Source: Chloroflexota bacterium (GTDB lineage Bacteria > Chloroflexota > Dehalococcoidia > Lucifugimonadales > UBA3495). From it: DNA of 64,000 bases. Below, piece by piece: positions 17,833 to 24,224 of the stretch. Numbering within the stretch: the first letter of the stretch is position 1; the number at the start of each line of letters is the position of its first letter. Location of the stretch: the NCBI GenBank assembly GCA_027623675.1, contig JAQBVF010000003.1, positions 64,001 through 128,000 of the forward strand. Direction: 5' to 3'. Below the pieces are notes generated by a model. That model made no database searches and was not told the DNA's origin. It saw nothing but the letters and a program-made list of their open reading frames with translations. A program made the position numbers and the translations under genes.

Positions 17833-19374
17833 TCAGCCTCCGTTTATCCAGTCGGCCATCCGTTCGCCGATCATTATGGTGGTGCAGTTGGTGTTGGCCC
17901 GGATGCAGTCGGGCATGATGGAAGCGTCGGCCACCCTCAGTCCGGTCAGCCCCTTGACCATGCCCTGCTGGTCAACAACCGCCATGGGGTCGGAGTCCGG
18001 CCCCATCTTGCAGGTGCCGGAGATGTGCTGGGTCGTGGTGACGCTGCGTTTGAGCCAGAGGTCCAGAGTCTCATCGGATACGAGGTCTTCGGGCTGGGGC
18101 TCAAGCAACTGCTTCACGATGGGTTTGTAATCGTCGTGTTTCAGGACATCCACGCACTTCCTGACGGCCTCACGCAGTCGAGCGAGGTCACGAGGATCGT
18201 CCTGGAAATAGTTGTAGTTGAGTTCGGGCTGCACGTTGGGGTCGGTGGACGTGATCTCCAGATGACCGGAGCCGTAAGCCAACTCCAAGATGCAGGTGAA
18301 CCTGATGCCCTCGGCCTCAAGCGGGTCGCCGGAGATGGGCGATGAGAACGAAGACGCCATGATCTGTATGTCGTTCCTCAAGTCCGAGCCGGTGGCGGTG
18401 TAGCGGAGGGCCACCTGAGAGCGTGGGTCTTCCGGGTTGAGCGGGAAGTCGTCTTGCACTTGGATGGGAATGCGGACGTTGGGGTGGTCTCGCAGGTTTC
18501 GGCCCACTCCGGGCGCTTCCAGCACCACGGGGATGCCCAGGCGGTCCAGCACTTTGACGGGGCCGACCCCCGACAGCATGAGCAGTTGGGGCGAGCCGAT
18601 GGCGCCGGAGGTCAGGATTATCTCAGAGCCCTCCACCGTGAAACGCTCGCCGTCGCTCTCCACTTCGACCCCGACGGCCCTTTTGCCATCGAAGACCACC
18701 CGGTGGGTCGTAACGTTGGGTTTGATGGTCAGGTTCAGCCGGTGGCGCGCGTCGGCCAGGTAGGTCAGGGCGGTGCTCATGCGGATGCCGTTGGGGTTGT
18801 TCATGGGTATGGGCCCGACACCGGCGGACTCTGGGTGGTTCATGTCCGGGTCGTCGGGATGGCCCTGGGCGCGGAAGCCGGCGTAGAAAGCGTTCTGGGC
18901 GGGAAGCCAAGTGTCACGGGCGTGGCGGCGCACCGGGATCGGACCTTCCGAACCGTGGAAATCGTCATGGATATCGGTGTCGGTCTCCAGTTTCCTCAGG
19001 AAGGGCAGCACGTCGGTGAACCCCCATTGGTCGTTGCCCAAGGCGGCCCAGGCGTCGTAGTCTTCCGGGACGCCCCGGAGCAGCACCTGGCCGTTGATGG
19101 CGCTGGACCCGCCGACCACCCGCCCTCTGGGAACCGGCATGGGCGTGGCCTGCTCCGGCGTGGTGTTGCCCTGGAATGACCAGTTGTGAGGCGCGTCCAC
19201 CGCCGATGCGGTCTGGTTATAGCCGAATTTTAGGTCGTCGGGGTAATGCTCGAAATCGGGATAGTCCGGCCCCGCTTCCAACAGCAGGATGGACTTGTTG
19301 GGGTCCTCGGATAATCTGCTGGCGATGACGCAACCGGCGGAACCGGCGCCGACGATGATGTAGTCGTATCTCAT
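17833..19374 (-). CDS. GMC family oxidoreductase
   Basis: GAGSAG, GGSSAING, QHISGTCKMG, ANTN. Confidence 0.92.
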   Translation of the reverse strand: MRYDYIIVGAGSAGCVIASRLSEDPNKSILLLEAGPDYPDFEHYPDDLKFGYNQTASAVDAPHNWSFQGNTTPEQATPMPVPRGRVVGGSSAINGQVLLRGVPEDYDAWAALGNDQWGFTDVLPFLRKLETDTDIHDDFHGSEGPIPVRRHARDTWLPAQNAFYAGFRAQGHPDDPDMNHPESAGVGPIPMNNPNGIRMSTALTYLADARHRLNLTIKPNVTTHRVVFDGKRAVGVEVESDGERFTVEGSEIILTSGAIGSPQLLMLSGVGPVKVLDRLGIPVVLEAPGVGRNLRDHPNVRIPIQVQDDFPLNPEDPRSQVALRYTATGSDLRNDIQIMASSFSSPISGDPLEAEGIRFTCILELAYGSGHLEITSTDPNVQPELNYNYFQDDPRDLARLREAVRKCVDVLKHDDYKPIVKQLLEPQPEDLVSDETLDLWLKRSVTTTQHISGTCKMGPDSDPMAVVDQQGMVKGLTGLRVADASIMPDCIRANTNCTTIMIGERMADWINGG

Positions 19375-19550
19375 AAGAAGCGTCCTCTCTTGGCGTTCTG
19401 TTTTACCGCTGGGATACATTTTTGCGGGAGGGCCGTGGGGAGGGAATCGGTAGCGTGGCCGCCCTGCTCAAGCGACGGCATTATCGCATATCGGGCCGGT
19501 GGCGGCATACGGGGTGTGGGGGCAGGCTTCGGGATCGGGATTGAGGGCGC

Positions 19551-21410
19551 CTATTCGCTGAGGTTAAAGACGAACCTCAGATTGGAGATGCTGCTCCGCA
19601 GTAGGAAGAAGCGGGCATTTACCTCGGGAATCATGGCGTTGGCTAGAAATAGGCTATCGTTGGACTGGGTCTCGGCGCTTTCCAACTCCAACGAGAGCCA
19701 TTTCAAGATTGTCCCAAAGTATTCTCCGGCTTCTTGATTTACCGCGGCGGCGGCCTCCGGCGGAGATAACTGGTCCAGGTCAGCGATCAGTTTCTTGGAT
19801 GCCTTGACCAAGGCGGCTCGCGTGCGGACCGCCTCATTGGCGTTCTGGCGTTGGAGAATATTCTGCTTTCGTTGGTCTAAGATCGCGTCCCGGTCGGCCA
19901 GGATCACATCAAGAGCCGCCAGGTAGTTTGCTATCGCGGTCTGTTCCGGGTCGGACCAATCGATCAGCCAGGCTTTGAAGTTTGACTCAAACAGGCCCAA
20001 CTTCTGGCCGGTTACCGCCAACATCGAGGATGCCAGGCTCGAGCCTCGTCCAATCTCCGCAACCACATCCCGGCCGGACAGCGGGCCGTAGGTCTCGTTC
20101 AAGTATCGTATGGCCATGTACGCTTCCGCGTATTGGAGGGTAACCAGGTCCTCGGTGGGGCGCTTGTTCCAGTCCGACTGGCGGTCCAGCTCAGCCAGGG
20201 TGAACAGGCTGCCTGCCCGCGCCGCCGTGCGGGCTACGTCAGCAGACCCGAATTGCCGCAGTCTGGACGCTTGAGGGCGGGGGCCGGCTAAAGCGATATC
20301 AAATTCGTAGTATCGGGAGAGTCCCTCAGCCAGCCACGCCGGCAGCGTCTTAGCTTTGGCCACGCCGTCGAGGACCCGGTGAGCGTATTCGTGGGCCAGC
20401 AGCCGCTGCAACTCGGTCGTCGGCAGGTCAGTGCGGATGTAGATCCCGGGCCGGGTCCCGAACGTTTTGTAGTAGCCGTCTTCAAATCCCAGGTTGATGC
20501 CGTCCGACAGACTCACCTCAGCCAGAAGTTCCCGGTTCTCCATCAGATACAGGTTGGGTAGCTCGCCCGTCTTGGTTTCGGTACGGAGGGCCATCAGCAG
20601 GCTGGTGTCGATCAAGAAATCTTGGAGGTCAGCCACCACCGCCTGAGGCACCAGGGCCGAGTAAAAGACGGTTATTCCGGGGCCGTCGTGGCGGGTCAGC
20701 AGCGCCCCGGCCGACGTCTTTATGGTGTCGCCCAGGTCAAACTCGCTCAGGGAATAGGAGGTGGAGGATACGCTGCCCTGCCGGTCGATCGCCACCGACC
20801 AAGCGCCGACGCCATCCCGGGAACCGTACCGTTTCCAATCAAGTTCACCGGAGGTGTTCGGGTACATCTTGAATGAAGTGGCTTTGACCCCGTTTGCGTC
20901 AACGATGTTGACGTCTTCGGCGGTGATCCAGGGCACGACTACCCCTTGAGGGTCGAGGAACGAGACGATAACCGCTTCCCAAGGAGTTAGGCCCGACAAC
21001 GCGAAAGAAACGTCCCGTCCCGCGAACTGTTTATCGGGTGAGATCGTGAGGGAAACACCGCTTCCCAGATCGACTCTGGCGACGCCCGGAGGGGGCGGAG
21101 TGGGAGTTGGCCTCGGGGTGGCGGTCGGCTGAGGGGTAGGCGTGGCGGTCGGCGGTATGGGCGTCGCGGTGGGAGCGGGGGTCAAGGTCGGGACCGGGAC
21201 GGCAGTCGCCGTGGCCGCCGGCGTGGGGCTTGGCGTTGGCCGTGGCGAAGCGGCCGTAGCCGCGGGGCTGGCGGCGGTTGGACCTGGGGTGGCCGTGGCC
21301 GGAGTGGCCGTTGAATCGGACGCAGGCGTTTTCGGCCCGGCGGACGGGGTGCAGGCGGCCAGGCTGATCAGAAGGGCAATCGCAACTAAGACCGCGGTAG
21401 TCAGCTTCAT
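19551..21410 (-). CDS. Lipoprotein with Pro/Thr linker and peptidase-MA-like (gluzincin) domain
   Basis: Lipobox LAAC, PT-rich tract, LAHEYAH...PAWLAEGLS...YAEAY. Confidence 0.75.
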   Translation of the reverse strand: MKLTTAVLVAIALLISLAACTPSAGPKTPASDSTATPATATPGPTAASPAATAASPRPTPSPTPAATATAVPVPTLTPAPTATPIPPTATPTPQPTATPRPTPTPPPPGVARVDLGSGVSLTISPDKQFAGRDVSFALSGLTPWEAVIVSFLDPQGVVVPWITAEDVNIVDANGVKATSFKMYPNTSGELDWKRYGSRDGVGAWSVAIDRQGSVSSTSYSLSEFDLGDTIKTSAGALLTRHDGPGITVFYSALVPQAVVADLQDFLIDTSLLMALRTETKTGELPNLYLMENRELLAEVSLSDGINLGFEDGYYKTFGTRPGIYIRTDLPTTELQRLLAHEYAHRVLDGVAKAKTLPAWLAEGLSRYYEFDIALAGPRPQASRLRQFGSADVARTAARAGSLFTLAELDRQSDWNKRPTEDLVTLQYAEAYMAIRYLNETYGPLSGRDVVAEIGRGSSLASSMLAVTGQKLGLFESNFKAWLIDWSDPEQTAIANYLAALDVILADRDAILDQRKQNILQRQNANEAVRTRAALVKASKKLIADLDQLSPPEAAAAVNQEAGEYFGTILKWLSLELESAETQSNDSLFLANAMIPEVNARFFLLRSSISNLRFVFNLSE

Positions 21411-21699
21411 GACTTGGCGGCTTTGGCACCTGAAGGGCAGGCCGAGAGGCACGGTTGGGATTTGACCAGCATGAATCCAGTCTTACATAGGGGGAGTTCT
21501 AGGGCAAGCAAGGCGTCGCGTCCCACGCTTGGTCTGGACCGGAGGCCCAGACCAGAGGCTCAGACCGGAGACAGAACATGCCGATCGAGATTTTGCCTGG
21601 GTGAAAGAGTCAAACTCGTGTTAGGATAATCTTGATTTTTGAGGCCCATTCCTGGCCGTCTCATCAAGACCGGTCAGGCCATAACGACTGGAGGGTGCC

Positions 21700-22461
21700 A
21701 TGAACGTCCACGTTTACACGCAACCTGGTTGATTCAGCTGCCGGACTGTAGAAGAATTTCTGAAGTCCAACGGTGTTCAGTATGAGCACCACAACGTACT
21801 GGAAGACCAACAAGCCCTGGAGGACCTGCGCGGCCGGGGCATAAAAGCATTGCCGGTGACCATCATCGATGACTCAGAAGTCATCATCGGTTATTTCCCC
21901 AAGAAGCTGATTCCTGCGCTCAAGCTGGATGTGAAAGTTGATCTTTCGGGAAAGACCGAATGGCTGGCCGACAAATACAACAGGATACTCAGCGCGGCTG
22001 TCCGGACCACTGCCCAGTTCTCGCAGGAGCAGCTGGACGCGGAAGTGCCGTGGCGTCCTTGGACCCTGCGGAAGACCGTCCTCCACATCATGTCCTTTCC
22101 CGAGGTGGCCTACCTGAGCCACAAGGTGGGCAGCATGAGCCAGGAGGACATGCGGGCCTCCGACGCACGCCTGGAGCCGGTCTATACCGCCGGCGACATG
22201 GCTGAATACGGTGAAAAGGTGCGCGGCGACATTGTGGCGTTCCTGAACAGCGGCGACATCGATGCCTTCGACCGGGAGGTTCCCGCCCATTACGGCGGCG
22301 AGGTAACGGTTCTGGAACTGCTGAACATCATTTTGAGCCACAGCACCCATCATCTGAAGCAGGTTTATCACCTGATGCAGACCGATCTCGGCATCACCCC
22401 GAAAGACCCAGCCAGCGATGCCGACTTTGAGGGCATCCAAACCCCGGAATCCCTTTTCTAG
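21700..22461 (+). CDS. Probable selenoprotein: glutaredoxin (UxxC) domain fused to a DinB/YfiT-like domain
   Basis: GGAGG RBS, ATG 21700, MNVHVYTQPG-TGA(21730-21732)-FSC, in frame with track ORF 21850..22461; cis-Pro motif ALPV; DinB histidines (VLHI, SHSTHH). Confidence 0.85.
21743..21768 (+). promoter_or_regulatory. Candidate bacterial SECIS element
   Basis: GGACT/AGTCC lower stem, AGAA/TTCT upper stem, loop GAAT beginning with G, 21 nt after the TGA. Confidence 0.6.
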
Positions 22462-22676
22462 GAACCTAGCGTTTCGTCCTGCTTAGGATTGCCGGTCCTT
22501 CCGCGGAGTGCCTGTTGCGCTGCGGAAGGACTGTATCTTTAGAAGGGTTGTATCTTTAGCTTGACCGGCGCACTGGGATGGACGCATTGCCATCCGTCCC
22601 TTTAGGCCGTCCCTTTAGCCTGTCCTTTTAGCGAGATTGGTGTTGTAGAAAAGATCTTACCTTTAGCGGAGTTGAT

Positions 22677-24224
22677 ATGAAATACGACTATATAGTCCTT
22701 GGCGCGGGCTCGGCCGGTTCGATCGTGGCAACCCGCCTCTCCGAAGACCCGTCCAAGAATATCTTGCTGCTCGAGGCGGGCCCCGACTACCCGGATTTCG
22801 AGCGTCTCCCCGAGGAAGTGAAGTTCGGCTACGCCACCGAGATCGACATCATGGTCAGCGACCACAACTGGCAGTTCGTGGGTAAGGCCACCGAGAAAGC
22901 GCCCGAGATGATGGTCCCCAGAGGCAAGGTAACCGGCGGCTCCAGCGCCATCAACGGCCAGGTCTTCCTCAGGGGAGTGCCCGAGGACTACGACTCCTGG
23001 GCCGAGATGGGCAACACCGAATGGAAGTTCCAGGACTGCCTGCCCTATTTCCGCAAGATCGAAACGGACACCGACTTCAGCGACGACTTCCACGGTAATG
23101 AAGGCCCCATCGTGATGCACCGCTTCCCCCGGGACACCTGGCATCCGGCGACCGAGGCCTTCTATCAGGCGTGCCGAGCCGCCGGCTATCCCGATTCCCC
23201 AGACCACAACAACCCTGATTCCACGGGCGTGGGGCCAACCCCGCTGAACAACCCCAACGGCATCCGCATGAGCACCGCGTTGGGCTACTTGGACCAGATC
23301 CGGCACCGCCTCAACGTGACCATCCGGGCCAATTGCCATGTGCAGCGCATCCTGTTCGAGGGCAAGCGGGCCGTGGGCGTCGAGGTTGAGAGCGGCGGTG
23401 AGAGATTCACAGTTGAGGGCGCCGAGATCATCTTGAGCTGCGGGGCCATCGGTTCGCCCCATACCCTGATGCTGTCCGGCGTCGGTCCGGCCGCACACCT
23501 GCAGGAGTTCGGCATACCCGTGGTACATGATGCCCCCGGCGTCGGTCAGAATATGCGCGACCATCCGCTGGTGTTCGTTACCTGGCGCACCAAACCGGAG
23601 GTGGAACTGGACGGCAACGCACCCCGGATGCAGGCCACCCTGCGCTACACCGCCGGCGGGTCAGACCTCCGGAACGACATGAAGGTCTCCATGCAGTCAT
23701 TCGCCACCGGCCGGATCAACCTGGGCGGCGACCGGATGGTTCCCCTGGGCATCCGCATGTCCAGCGGAATCCAGTTGGCCGCCGGGGCCGGAGAACTTCG
23801 GTTGCAGTCGGCGGACCCTTCGGTGCAGCCGTTCTTGGACTACCGTTATCTGGAGGAGGAGTTCGACCGGGCACGCCTGCGGGAGACGGTCCGGATCTGT
23901 GTGGCCCTGGGCGAGGACCCGGCGTTCAAGGACATCATCCAAGAGCGTATCGAGCCCACGGACGCCGAATTGGAGAGCGACGATGCCCTGGACGAGTTTC
24001 TGTACCGGGAGGTGAGCACTTCTCAGCACATATCCTGCACCTGCAAGATGGGGCCGTCTTCCGACCCCATGGCCGTGGTTGACCAGTATGGCAAGGTCCA
24101 TGGCATGGAGGGACTACGGGTGGTTGACGCCTCCATCATGCCCGACTGCATCCGCGCCAACACCAACGTAACCACCATGATGATTGGCGAGCGAGTGGCC
24201 GACTGGATCAAGCAGGGCAAGTAG
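22677..24224 (+). CDS. GMC family oxidoreductase
   Basis: GAGSAG, GGSSAING, QHISCTCKMG; close paralog of 17833..19374. Confidence 0.92.
   Translation: MKYDYIVLGAGSAGSIVATRLSEDPSKNILLLEAGPDYPDFERLPEEVKFGYATEIDIMVSDHNWQFVGKATEKAPEMMVPRGKVTGGSSAINGQVFLRGVPEDYDSWAEMGNTEWKFQDCLPYFRKIETDTDFSDDFHGNEGPIVMHRFPRDTWHPATEAFYQACRAAGYPDSPDHNNPDSTGVGPTPLNNPNGIRMSTALGYLDQIRHRLNVTIRANCHVQRILFEGKRAVGVEVESGGERFTVEGAEIILSCGAIGSPHTLMLSGVGPAAHLQEFGIPVVHDAPGVGQNMRDHPLVFVTWRTKPEVELDGNAPRMQATLRYTAGGSDLRNDMKVSMQSFATGRINLGGDRMVPLGIRMSSGIQLAAGAGELRLQSADPSVQPFLDYRYLEEEFDRARLRETVRICVALGEDPAFKDIIQERIEPTDAELESDDALDEFLYREVSTSQHISCTCKMGPSSDPMAVVDQYGKVHGMEGLRVVDASIMPDCIRANTNVTTMMIGERVADWIKQGK

Follow-up and report, generated by a model that had tools for sequence, protein, structure and literature searches.

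The locus at 21700..22461 of the window (the whole 64,000-nucleotide stretch of Chloroflexota DNA that was analysed) raises the question of whether a TGA at the eleventh codon of an otherwise open frame ends translation or encodes selenocysteine (Sec), and what kind of protein would be produced in the second case. Based on the analyses described below, we suggest that the gene encodes a 253-residue selenoprotein in which a Sec redox module serves a DinB metal site. We give this explanation as a whole a probability of roughly 0.85.

Gene organization

One open frame on the forward strand runs from the ATG at 21700 through the TGA at 21730..21732 to the TAG at 22459..22461, giving 253 codons with TGA read as U. 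The read-through product starts with MNVHVYTQPG-U-FSC. Upstream of the ATG lies GGAGGG (21690..21695), in which a ribosome-binding site, GGAGG (21690..21694, forward strand), is read directly 5 nt before the start codon. Both GGAGG and ATG are conserved across orthologs, whereas the DNA farther upstream diverges; in the ortholog alignment, the GGAGG columns are less variable than the 30-nt pre-ATG average of 0.45. This layout, with its GGAGG, its start, the same-frame TGA and the length of 253 aa, agrees with that of an earlier note made from the sequence alone, which had also observed that the frame is otherwise opened at a TTG. Indeed, table-11 ORF finding starts at TTG 21850..21852 (forward strand) and yields a shortened 203-aa "DinB family protein".

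The complete coding sequence (21700..22461, forward strand, Sec as codon 11) is delineated by the translation, two Pfam domains and an AlphaFold2 model of the full protein, which was built with Cys substituted for Sec and reached a pLDDT of 92.9 and a pTM of 0.90. A promoter and terminator scan of 21400..22750 returned one promoter-like site against 0.8 expected, and no terminator. Assembled contigs of two RNA libraries bridge the TGA; they come from relatives with at least 80% likeness, and these contigs (X17 records 4 and 5; X20 records 20 and 21) are no reliable guide to transcription or to the codon.

A glutaredoxin-like domain fused to a DinB bundle

The N-terminal part is a glutaredoxin-like domain of the thioredoxin fold (Pfam residues 3–59; 21706..21876, forward strand), supported by structure matches. 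PF00462 matched these residues with an E-value of 1.4e-9 and 38.5 bits (cut-off 22.9), the match spanning the UGA, and the thioredoxin fold extends to about residue 73. In the AlphaFold2 model, the motif U11-F-S-C14, whose second redox residue is C14 (21739..21741, forward strand, from the translation), precedes a helix at residues 12–23, while the cis-Pro position is occupied by P52, invariant in an alignment of 35 sequences. A profile search matched the PDB glutaredoxin 7c10 (E 2.6e-19) and also the NrdH structure 1h75; Foldseek gave TM scores on target of 0.87–0.95 to 1h75, 7c10, 7c12 and 3zit, with 1h75 as the top match. GST-like Foldseek matches, which concerned the N-terminal domain only, were rejected (rmsd 13–17 Å, TM about 0.3).

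The earlier note had placed the TGA in an NrdH/glutaredoxin motif. The TGA does stand at the first CxxC position of a glutaredoxin domain, but "NrdH" is too specific because the NrdH models TIGR02194 and NF007657 remained below their cut-offs (48.8 versus 85.75 bits and 36.2 versus 131 bits). The protein shares the small glutaredoxin-like fold with NrdH-redoxin (E. coli 1h75; TIGR02194), and the motifs CVQC and WSGFRP, which we take to be the NrdH signatures, are absent from its sequence. No ribonucleotide-reductase context is apparent beside the gene.

The closest parallel in architecture of the motif is the clostridial Sec-glutaredoxin with its Cys paralog cGrx1 (7c10/7c12), which has the same thioredoxin fold and Sec as the first residue of a near-N-terminal U-x-x-C; the model superposes on 7c10 with TM 0.90–0.95 and 38–40% identity. 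The similarity to the UXX-star glutaredoxin-like selenoproteins is distant, and all four models scored below cut-off (NF041212, 36.5 versus 66 bits; NF041114, NF041211 and NF047338, 24.8 versus 100, 20.5 versus 72 and 16.3 versus 97 bits). In UXX-star proteins, Sec presumably lies three residues from the C-terminus, as the name implies; in the present 253-residue protein, it is at position 11. Grx (PF00462, UxxC) is listed as a known selenoprotein in the accessible text of a 2026 review (PMC13188914), and "Grx-like" UxxC proteins of marine metagenomes are listed, with 42 sequences, in that of the GOS study (PMC2398784). Those are single-domain proteins of about 75–100 residues, whereas the protein described here carries the motif UFSC and an additional DinB part of about 170 residues; a DinB fusion is not mentioned in the main text of either article.

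The C-terminal part is a DinB_2 four-helix bundle (Pfam residues 102–222; 22003..22365, forward strand), with 40.6 bits to PF12867 against a cut-off of 24.8. The helices of the model in this part cover residues 86–104, 123–143, 164–183 and 204–228, and Foldseek gave TM scores on target of 0.69–0.83 to 2p1a, 6iz2 and 1rxq (YfiT). The DinB-type His residues pointed out earlier are conserved: from the alignment, H129 (22084..22086), H214 (22339..22341) and H218 (22351..22353), all on the forward strand, form a putative metal-binding triad; among the 35 sequences, the first and the last of these never vary, and H214 has a conservation of at least 90%. In the same alignment, the DinB domain has no Cys that is conserved. 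The four-helix bundle and three-His site are common to the DinB/YfiT proteins compared (YfiT/BstA, mycothiol S-transferase, DR0053 (6iz2) and BCE_2162 (2p1a)). The characterised members, however, are stand-alone proteins that lack Sec and work with a diffusible thiol, whereas here a redoxin is fused at the N-terminus.

The same two domains, with the His triad and a similar length, occur in Cys-form Grx-DinB proteins of marine Alpha- and Gammaproteobacteria (P0152; loci L092–L171), retrieved with a four-sequence alignment. These are 21–29% identical to the Sec form, carry the motif CSSC (80 of the 80 fetched proteobacterial loci) and lack a hairpin signal downstream of the Cys codon. Several residues that the Cys forms conserve, namely an Arg, a Trp and a C-terminal GLPxP...WD, differ in the Sec form. 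A literature search found no experimental study of this Cys-form family.

Proposed function and the source of reducing equivalents

We suggest the following scheme for the protein. The UGA at codon 11 would be decoded as Sec by the host SelA, SelB, SelD and tRNA-Sec, aided by a hairpin at 21743..21768. Sec11 and Cys14 would constitute the U-x-x-C redox centre of the glutaredoxin-like domain, which is joined in one chain to the DinB bundle with its three-His site and packs against it in the model. In the proposed selenenylsulfide/dithiol cycle, the nucleophilic attack would come from the Sec11 selenolate, and the cycle may serve chemistry at the DinB metal site. Such chemistry could be a reduction, or the transfer of a thiol or selenol to a bound electrophile or to an oxidised substrate. 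We consider it rather probable that the two domains are redox partners. Whether the module is fed by thioredoxin reductase and does not depend on a low-molecular-weight thiol is an evenly balanced matter, and thioredoxin reductase is a more likely reductant of the module than glutathione.

Thioredoxin reductase was found in the genome (362 bits, above the cut-off), and characterised NrdH proteins are reduced by this enzyme. Neither glutathione synthetase (gshB) nor BshC had a match in the 91.4%-complete genome, and an MshC-like match below threshold (329 versus 485 bits) is probably a cysteinyl-tRNA synthetase; this search covered one marker gene for each of the three thiol pathways.

These results bear on an alternative that we regard as unlikely, although it keeps some weight, in which the DinB part is itself a low-molecular-weight-thiol S-transferase and the Sec-glutaredoxin binds or recycles a diffusible thiol, e.g., glutathione. 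A precedent exists in the superfamily: according to the accessible text of a 2024 review (PMC10950700), DinB/YfiT proteins include bacillithiol and mycothiol S-transferases whose metal is held by conserved His residues. The His triad is retained here, and among solved structures, the clostridial glutaredoxin 7c10 is nearest to the N-terminal domain. Furthermore, the Cys-form family is found mainly in Proteobacteria, which as a group make glutathione. On the other hand, the YfiT/BstA equivalog for bacillithiol transferases (NF009807; cut-off 160 bits) gave only 19 bits, and the markers of glutathione and bacillithiol synthesis had no match, with that of mycothiol below threshold, in a genome that is 91% complete. 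The coupling to low-molecular-weight thiol conjugation proposed in the earlier note is thus unsupported, because none of these synthesis markers was found and thioredoxin reductase is present.

The gene neighbourhood was inspected in both forms. Around the Sec loci, 27 of 28 crude flanking ORFs had no Pfam family; these are probably shadow ORFs produced by naive calling in short GC-rich flanks. The flanks of the Cys forms (68 of 111 extracted ORFs scanned) contained varied, non-recurrent families, with repeats (aconitase, AtuA, MFS) confined to close kin. No conserved neighbourhood partner was found among the flanking ORFs scanned.

Conservation of the UGA codon and the selenocysteine machinery

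The Sec reading of the UGA (21730..21732, forward strand), with U11 as the opening residue of the U-F-S-C redox motif, rests on conservation of the codon and on Cys in homologs. In 60 related genomes, each of the 38 full-length matches contained one TGA, and a pattern check confirmed it at the first position of U-x-x-C/S in 37 of these 38 relatives. The position is common to four diverged groups (U-FSC, U-FTC, U-ATC and U-FHS), invariant in 30 of 30 aligned orthologs, and occupied by TGA at the motif codon in all 53 metagenome loci that were parsed out of 55 returned. The recurrence of this TGA in the genomes of 37 relatives and in 53 metagenome loci takes the observation beyond chance. The pairing of TGA with Cys, by which the earlier note had proposed to check its reading, was also recovered: all 34 distant full-length homologs (21–29% identity) have Cys, as CxxC, aligned to U11 and C14.

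The other check named there concerned the decoding genes, and selA, selB, selD and tRNA-Sec are all present in the same 3.07-Mb assembly. Profile searches gave 554.8 bits for selA (cut-off 268) and 347.7 bits for selB (cut-off 242); selD (380.3 bits), which itself contains one in-frame TGA, and tRNA-Sec (70.4 bits) were above their curated cut-offs. ARAGORN likewise reported a tRNA-SeC with the anticodon tca. TGA also terminates 7 of the 32 long ORFs of the window and is an ordinary stop codon here.

A very improbable reading, and one largely refuted, is that this UGA is a true stop as well, so that a DinB-only protein would be made from an internal GTG or TTG and the first ten codons would be a leader or a tiny uORF. 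It is the result of table-11 ORF finding and of all public annotations. Against it, substitutions in the ten codons preceding the TGA follow the same coding pattern as those in the codons downstream: the variability of the alignment columns at the three codon positions is 0.063/0.027/0.257 on the 5' side of the TGA and 0.070/0.038/0.227 on the 3' side, compared with 0.447 in the 30 nt preceding the ATG. As judged from this alignment, the ten codons evolve as coding sequence. The conserved ribosome-binding site and ATG also argue against a true stop, as do the distant homologs, whose full-length sequences have Cys in place of the UGA. In addition, the annotated starts vary (237, 233, 220, 214 and 203 aa), and each cuts into the glutaredoxin fold.

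That the UGA is read as another amino acid (Trp or Cys, by a near-cognate tRNA), that the gene is a pseudogene or that the TGA is an assembly error is equally improbable, given that the TGA is invariant, under purifying selection, in dozens of assemblies made independently, that the Sec machinery is complete, and that the UGA stands at the position of the catalytic Cys of homologs. Two database entries seem to favour such a reading, with Trp (P0115) or Arg (P0108, 253 aa, one member sequence) at residue 11. The Trp is the gene caller's reading, because DNA 98% identical to P0115 has TGA there, and the Arg is known from the protein entry alone. An additional in-frame TAG occurs in two relatives (G019 and G367). 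Contigs of two DNA runs containing the stretch show no difference across it, which counts against an assembly error, the runs probably being from the source sample and so non-independent.

Hairpin downstream of the UGA

A putative SECIS hairpin begins 10 nt after the UGA (21743..21768, forward strand), as indicated by minimum-free-energy (MFE) folding and synonymous-shuffle nulls. It consists of an outer stem GGACU/AGUCC, an inner stem UAGAA/UUCUG and an apical loop GAAU (21754..21757), and it is the MFE structure of 21725..21790 (-22.7 kcal/mol). The stem-loop with a G-starting apical loop drawn in the earlier note is therefore the one obtained by folding. Compared with dinucleotide shuffles, the fold of 21725..21790 has a z of -3.44, and 1 of 200 shuffles was equally good.

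Applied to an alignment of the regions following the UGA in 37 sequences, RNAalifold returned no meaningful consensus (-0.66 kcal/mol), because the hairpin register varies among the sequences; for this reason, per-sequence folding with synonymous-codon nulls was used. The Sec genes had a mean z of -1.32 (n = 37; 12 at p ≤ 0.05) versus -0.01 in the Cys-form genes (n = 77; 5 at p ≤ 0.05), and the mean MFE was -12.99 against a null of -9.48 in the former and -8.05 against -8.12 in the latter. The Mann–Whitney test on z between the two sets gave p = 1e-7, which is overstated because the relatives are non-independent. The excess stability per gene is modest, and z is near 0 in several orthologs.

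Hairpin cells were paired in 75.4% of cases versus 33–56% in slid registers. Covariation was seen at two hairpin pairs (pair 18–35 is G-C in 32 sequences and U-A in another 11), and the measure that counts pairs altered on both sides was not above shuffles (492 of 500). The controls for covariation carry some bias, since the structure under test was taken from one of the sequences, and these are related to each other. Rfam at permissive E-values returned for 21600..21900 only chance snoRNA-like matches on the opposite strand. In the same genome, hairpins in comparable positions follow the UGA codons of two other genes, selD and a stand-alone gene for a Grx-like protein. The same fold contains a second hairpin, GGUGUUCA-GUA-UGAGCACC, with an 8-bp stem 40 nt after the UGA (21772..21790, forward strand). 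Orthologs hardly differ in its sequence, even at third codon positions, and this hairpin may extend the SECIS or be incidental.

Taken together, the conservation of the UGA, the Cys homologs, the Sec machinery and the hairpin strongly support the hidden selenoprotein of the earlier note, and the grounds it had named against one (missing Sec machinery, no TGA in homologs, an assembly error) were each looked into without overturning it. The gene almost certainly encodes a real Sec-containing protein.

Annotation and biological significance

All 120 database relatives listed are shortened or mistranslated, and 118 of them are 201–238 aa long and named "DinB family protein". Entries identical to the window (P0019, P0022 (203 aa) and P0032 (201 aa)) start at or near TTG 21850. 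The truncation by standard gene callers that had been anticipated is thus real, and across an abundant marine lineage the catalytic residue is systematically missing from the annotation. The gene is present in nearly every examined genome of this Chloroflexota clade and in many metagenomes.

No NCBIfam model was over cut-off for the two-domain architecture, and a Grx-DinB selenoprotein is unmentioned in the searchable selenoproteome literature. Thioredoxin-fold UxxC selenoproteins are a well-known kind, of which the DinB-fused form is a new variant. A more tentative idea, which we hold to be possible though rather doubtful, is that the fused Sec-redoxin replaces the diffusible thiol of other DinB-fold transferases, with a tethered selenolate acting at the three-His site and being recharged by thioredoxin reductase. 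If true, such proteins would form a new class of enzymes, namely self-contained reductases or transferases that depend on a selenol and are assisted by a metal, in a lineage in which glutathione, bacillithiol or mycothiol synthesis was not detected.

The selenoprotein would be the first link of selenocysteine with the DinB superfamily. Most members of this superfamily have no known substrate, and the constant fusion to a redoxin offers a lead on the chemistry that they perform. Finally, the Sec forms of Chloroflexota and the Cys forms of Proteobacteria provide a natural pair for probing the catalytic contribution of Sec.

Gene Organization and Domain Architecture

A GGAGGG ribosome-binding site (RBS; 21690–21695, + strand) was found upstream of an ATG at 21700 (+), which shares its frame with a TGA at 21730–21732 (+), with which the redox motif begins, and with the TAG stop at 22459–22461 (+), up to which this single frame is open. 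Ordinary ORF finding gives a 203-residue ORF starting at TTG 21850, and reading the TGA as selenocysteine (Sec) gives 253 residues with the N-terminus MNVHVYTQPG-U-FSC. The layout described in the earlier note (RBS, ATG, TGA at the redox motif, one frame) is present in the window in all its elements.

The Pfam Glutaredoxin domain was matched at residues 3–59 (E 1.4e-9, 38.5 bits, cut-off 22.9), and therefore the UGA lies inside the redoxin domain. DinB_2 was matched at residues 102–222 (E 4.3e-10, 40.6 bits, cut-off 24.8), so that the proposed glutaredoxin–DinB fusion is borne out in the read-through protein. The AlphaFold2 model, built on an alignment of the query and 34 full-length relatives (21–29% identity to the query), had a pLDDT of 92.9 and a pTM of 0.90. 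It comprises a beta-alpha-beta redoxin (residues 3–73) and a C-terminal half of four long helices (86–104, 123–143, 164–183 and 204–228). Foldseek matched the N-terminal half to NrdH (1h75), the Bacillus thioredoxin-like protein 3zit and clostridial Grx1 (7c10, 7c12; TM on target 0.90–0.95, 38–40% identity), and the C-terminal half to the DinB/YfiT proteins 2p1a, 6iz2 and 1rxq (TM on target 0.69–0.83). A sequence-profile search agreed with both assignments, and no solved chain spanning both halves was among the structure matches. Foldseek matches to GST structures were spurious (rmsd 13–17 Å).

The RBS and ATG are retained in orthologs. Across 30 orthologs, column variability at codon positions 1/2/3 was 0.063/0.027/0.257 in the ten codons from ATG to TGA and 0.070/0.038/0.227 in the twenty codons past it. 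The TGA columns did not vary, and overall variability in the 30 nt upstream of the ATG was 0.447.

Conservation of the In-Frame TGA

When 60 related genomes were searched with read-through of stops, 38 full-length matches were found outside the window's own assembly (G000): 18 from the same genus, 12 orthologs from the family's other genera, and 8 paralogs at a greater distance. A further match (G026:C219) starts at residue 24, does not cover the site and was left out. Of the 19 same-genus genomes, only G001, which is 62% complete, had no match. All 38 carry one in-frame TGA, and in 37 of them a pattern match on DNA shows that U-x-x-C/S begins with it. This is so in four diverged groups: the PG-U-FSC orthologs, the RPG-U-FTC paralogs, G-U-ATC, and a single CA-U-FHS. 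The remaining match, from genome G019, falls outside the motif pattern and contains an additional TAG in frame. In 400 genomes sampled evenly from the phylum, full-length matches came from only five further genomes (TGA in 5/5, one also with TAG), and among 55 loci from a metagenome scan all 53 that cover the site have TGA. Homologs with TGA at this position, which the earlier note had named as a check, are thus numerous. Because the same TGA recurs in independent assemblies, an assembly error or a nonsense mutation, which the note had proposed as grounds for refutation, is ruled out. Contigs from two DNA runs did not differ from the gene, although both runs probably represent the source sample and are then not independent.

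The paralog groups (loci L053–L057, L058, L059 and L060) share 28–39% identity with the query; their motifs are U-FTC, U-ATC and U-FHS, the last without a resolving Cys. An ortholog and a U-FTC paralog occur together in five related genomes. The copies with an extra TAG beside the TGA (G019:C5:17102-17860 and G367:C560:2944-3705) may be pseudogenes or assembly errors.

Pairing of Selenocysteine with Cysteine

When 1.84 billion representatives were searched exhaustively without a profile, 656 relatives were recovered, the closest being N-terminally truncated calls, with many full-length ones from ~32% identity downward. All 34 full-length relatives in the alignment have Cys at both positions, U11 and C14, which confirms the expected Cys/TGA pairing at residue 11. 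In the same 35 sequences, the cis-Pro position P52 and the DinB histidines H129 and H218 are invariant, H214 is at least 90% conserved, and the DinB half has no conserved Cys. A genome scan with four Cys-form queries (homologs with Cys at codon 11) gave 589 loci or more. Of these, 80 were retained, most of them from MAGs of marine Alpha- and Gammaproteobacteria (Rhodospirillales, SAR116, Pelagibacteraceae, Thioglobus and others), and every one has CSSC. Two 253-residue database proteins have W (P0115) and R (P0108) at position 11; the W is the gene caller's reading, since DNA 98% identical to P0115 has TGA.

Selenocysteine Machinery and Stop Codon Usage

The G000 assembly (3.07 Mb, 48 contigs, 91.4% complete) contains the whole set of Sec genes sought: selA (554.8 bits), selB (347.7 bits), selD (380.3 bits, with one in-frame TGA) and tRNA-Sec (70.4 bits; called by ARAGORN as tRNA-SeC, anticodon tca). 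The organism has not reassigned TGA, which terminates 7 of 32 long ORFs in the window, one of them a GMC oxidoreductase whose Pfam match reaches the end of the C-terminal domain model.

Among the 32 window ORFs of at least 250 aa, TGA is the rarest stop (7 TGA, 14 TAG, 11 TAA) at a G+C content of 61.5%. Such a low share is uncommon in GC-rich genomes and may be linked to heavy Sec use. The selD gene (G000:C3:53424-54344, − strand) is itself a selenoprotein gene, with TGA in ...SHCAG-U-AAKL and a strong hairpin ~19 nt past it. A stand-alone glutaredoxin-like gene of ~79 residues (G000:C26:59974-60165, − strand) has TGA in YTQPDG-U-HFC and an 8-bp stem with a triloop beginning 15 nt past the UGA. 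Many similar single-domain genes, each with one TGA, occur in the sample of phylum genomes.

Hairpin Downstream of the UGA

Folding of 21725–21790 (−22.7 kcal/mol, z −3.44; 1 of 200 dinucleotide shuffles equally good) reproduced the stem-loop noted earlier at 21743–21768 (+), with its G-starting apical loop, GAAU. A second hairpin (21772–21790, +), with a stem of 8 bp and a GUA loop, follows 40 nt past the UGA. Its sequence is almost constant in orthologs, third codon positions included, and it may belong to an extended SECIS or serve some other purpose.

A single consensus structure was not obtained across the Sec-form sequences (TGA at codon 11) because codon choice for E-E-F or K-E-F shifts the register of the stem, and three other tests were therefore used. 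The UGA and 15 following codons were folded against shuffles that left both the protein sequence and the codon usage of each gene unchanged. The 37 Sec-form genes had a mean MFE of −12.99 kcal/mol against a null mean of −9.48 (mean z −1.32; p ≤ 0.05 in 12), and a separate run gave −1.31 and 11/37. The 77 Cys-form genes, which encode a like T-K-E-F-L peptide at the corresponding region, gave −8.05 against −8.12 kcal/mol (mean z −0.01; p ≤ 0.05 in 5); three of the 80 loci were excluded for N in the coding sequence. The Mann–Whitney p of 1e-7 between the two sets of z values is overstated, as the sequences are related.

Covariation was assessed in the window's own stem register over 57 ortholog sequences (55 distinct). 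Paired cells made up 75.4%, versus 33–56% with a slid partner. At pair 18–35, 32 sequences have G-C and 11 have U-A; at pair 19–34, 14 have C-G and 8 have U-A. The covariation score exceeded 500/500 shuffles, but the count of pairs changed on both sides did not exceed the shuffles (492 of 500), for a structure derived from one member and sequences that are related. In the paralogs, an almost perfect ACGAAAGA-GUU-UCUUUCGU hairpin occupies the equivalent place with invariant synonymous sites, and selD and the stand-alone glutaredoxin-like gene of G000 have stable hairpins soon after their UGA. A SECIS role of the hairpin is supported but not proven.

Proposed Function and Gene Context

The protein is a UxxC redoxin fused to a His3 DinB domain. 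In thioredoxin-fold UxxC selenoproteins, Sec takes the place of the attacking Cys. In characterised DinB-fold enzymes (BstA, MST), the metal binds and activates a thiol, according to PMC10950700. We suggest that the Sec11 selenolate would attack a substrate, or an intermediate bound to the enzyme, in or close to the metal site, that C14 would then resolve the selenenylsulfide, and that an external reductase would recharge the pair.

With one marker per thiol pathway, glutathione synthetase and BshC had no match in the 91%-complete G000, and an MshC-like match (329 bits vs cut-off 485) is probably CysRS. One thioredoxin reductase lies above the cut-off and two close below (G000:C17:59491-60387, C17:48508-49410 and C41:44913-45806). 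Given the missing glutathione synthetase and BshC matches, the presence of thioredoxin reductase and the NrdH-like domain, these one-marker searches in an incomplete genome tilt toward a module fed by thioredoxin reductase. They tilt against the low-molecular-weight-thiol conjugation first envisaged.

The gene is flanked by GMC-family FAD oxidoreductase paralogs at 17833–19419 (−) and 22677–24224 (+). Directly upstream on the opposite strand is a Peptidase_MA_2-domain, MA-clan peptidase-like protein (19551–21452, −). A 320-aa ORF without a family (22602–23564, −) appears to be a shadow ORF of the GMC gene. These surroundings give no clue to function, and no conserved neighbour partner was found among Cys-form loci.

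Annotation and Prevalence

Based on the above results, we consider the gene a real selenoprotein with a probability of roughly 0.93. Published sources describe Sec-glutaredoxin as an established selenoprotein (PMC13188914) and count 'Grx-like' UxxC sequences in the GOS survey (PMC2398784). The literature searched held no description of a DinB-containing selenoprotein, although the GOS supplements may list members as 'Grx-like'. The main text of the 2026 review (PMC13188914) lacks DinB, mycothiol, bacillithiol, PF12867 and SAR202, and the deep-Sep main text and four supplement files lack DinB and any term beginning with Chloroflex. In the literature searched, SAR202 was not co-mentioned with 'selenoprotein', and with 'selenocysteine' only in single mentions. 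The combination of a Sec-redoxin with DinB is new; thioredoxin-fold UxxC selenoproteins as a kind were already known.

No NCBIfam model reaches its cut-off for the read-through protein. The best 120 database relatives, from Chloroflexi, Dehalococcoidia and SAR202-cluster MAGs, are named 'DinB family protein' or 'damage-inducible protein DinB', and these source names suggest that the window's organism is itself a member of the SAR202 cluster. As predicted of gene callers, 118 of them are truncated at the N-terminus (201–238 aa), and the other two, P0115 and probably P0108, mistranslate the codon. The Sec-redoxin–DinB gene is widespread and consistently mis-annotated.
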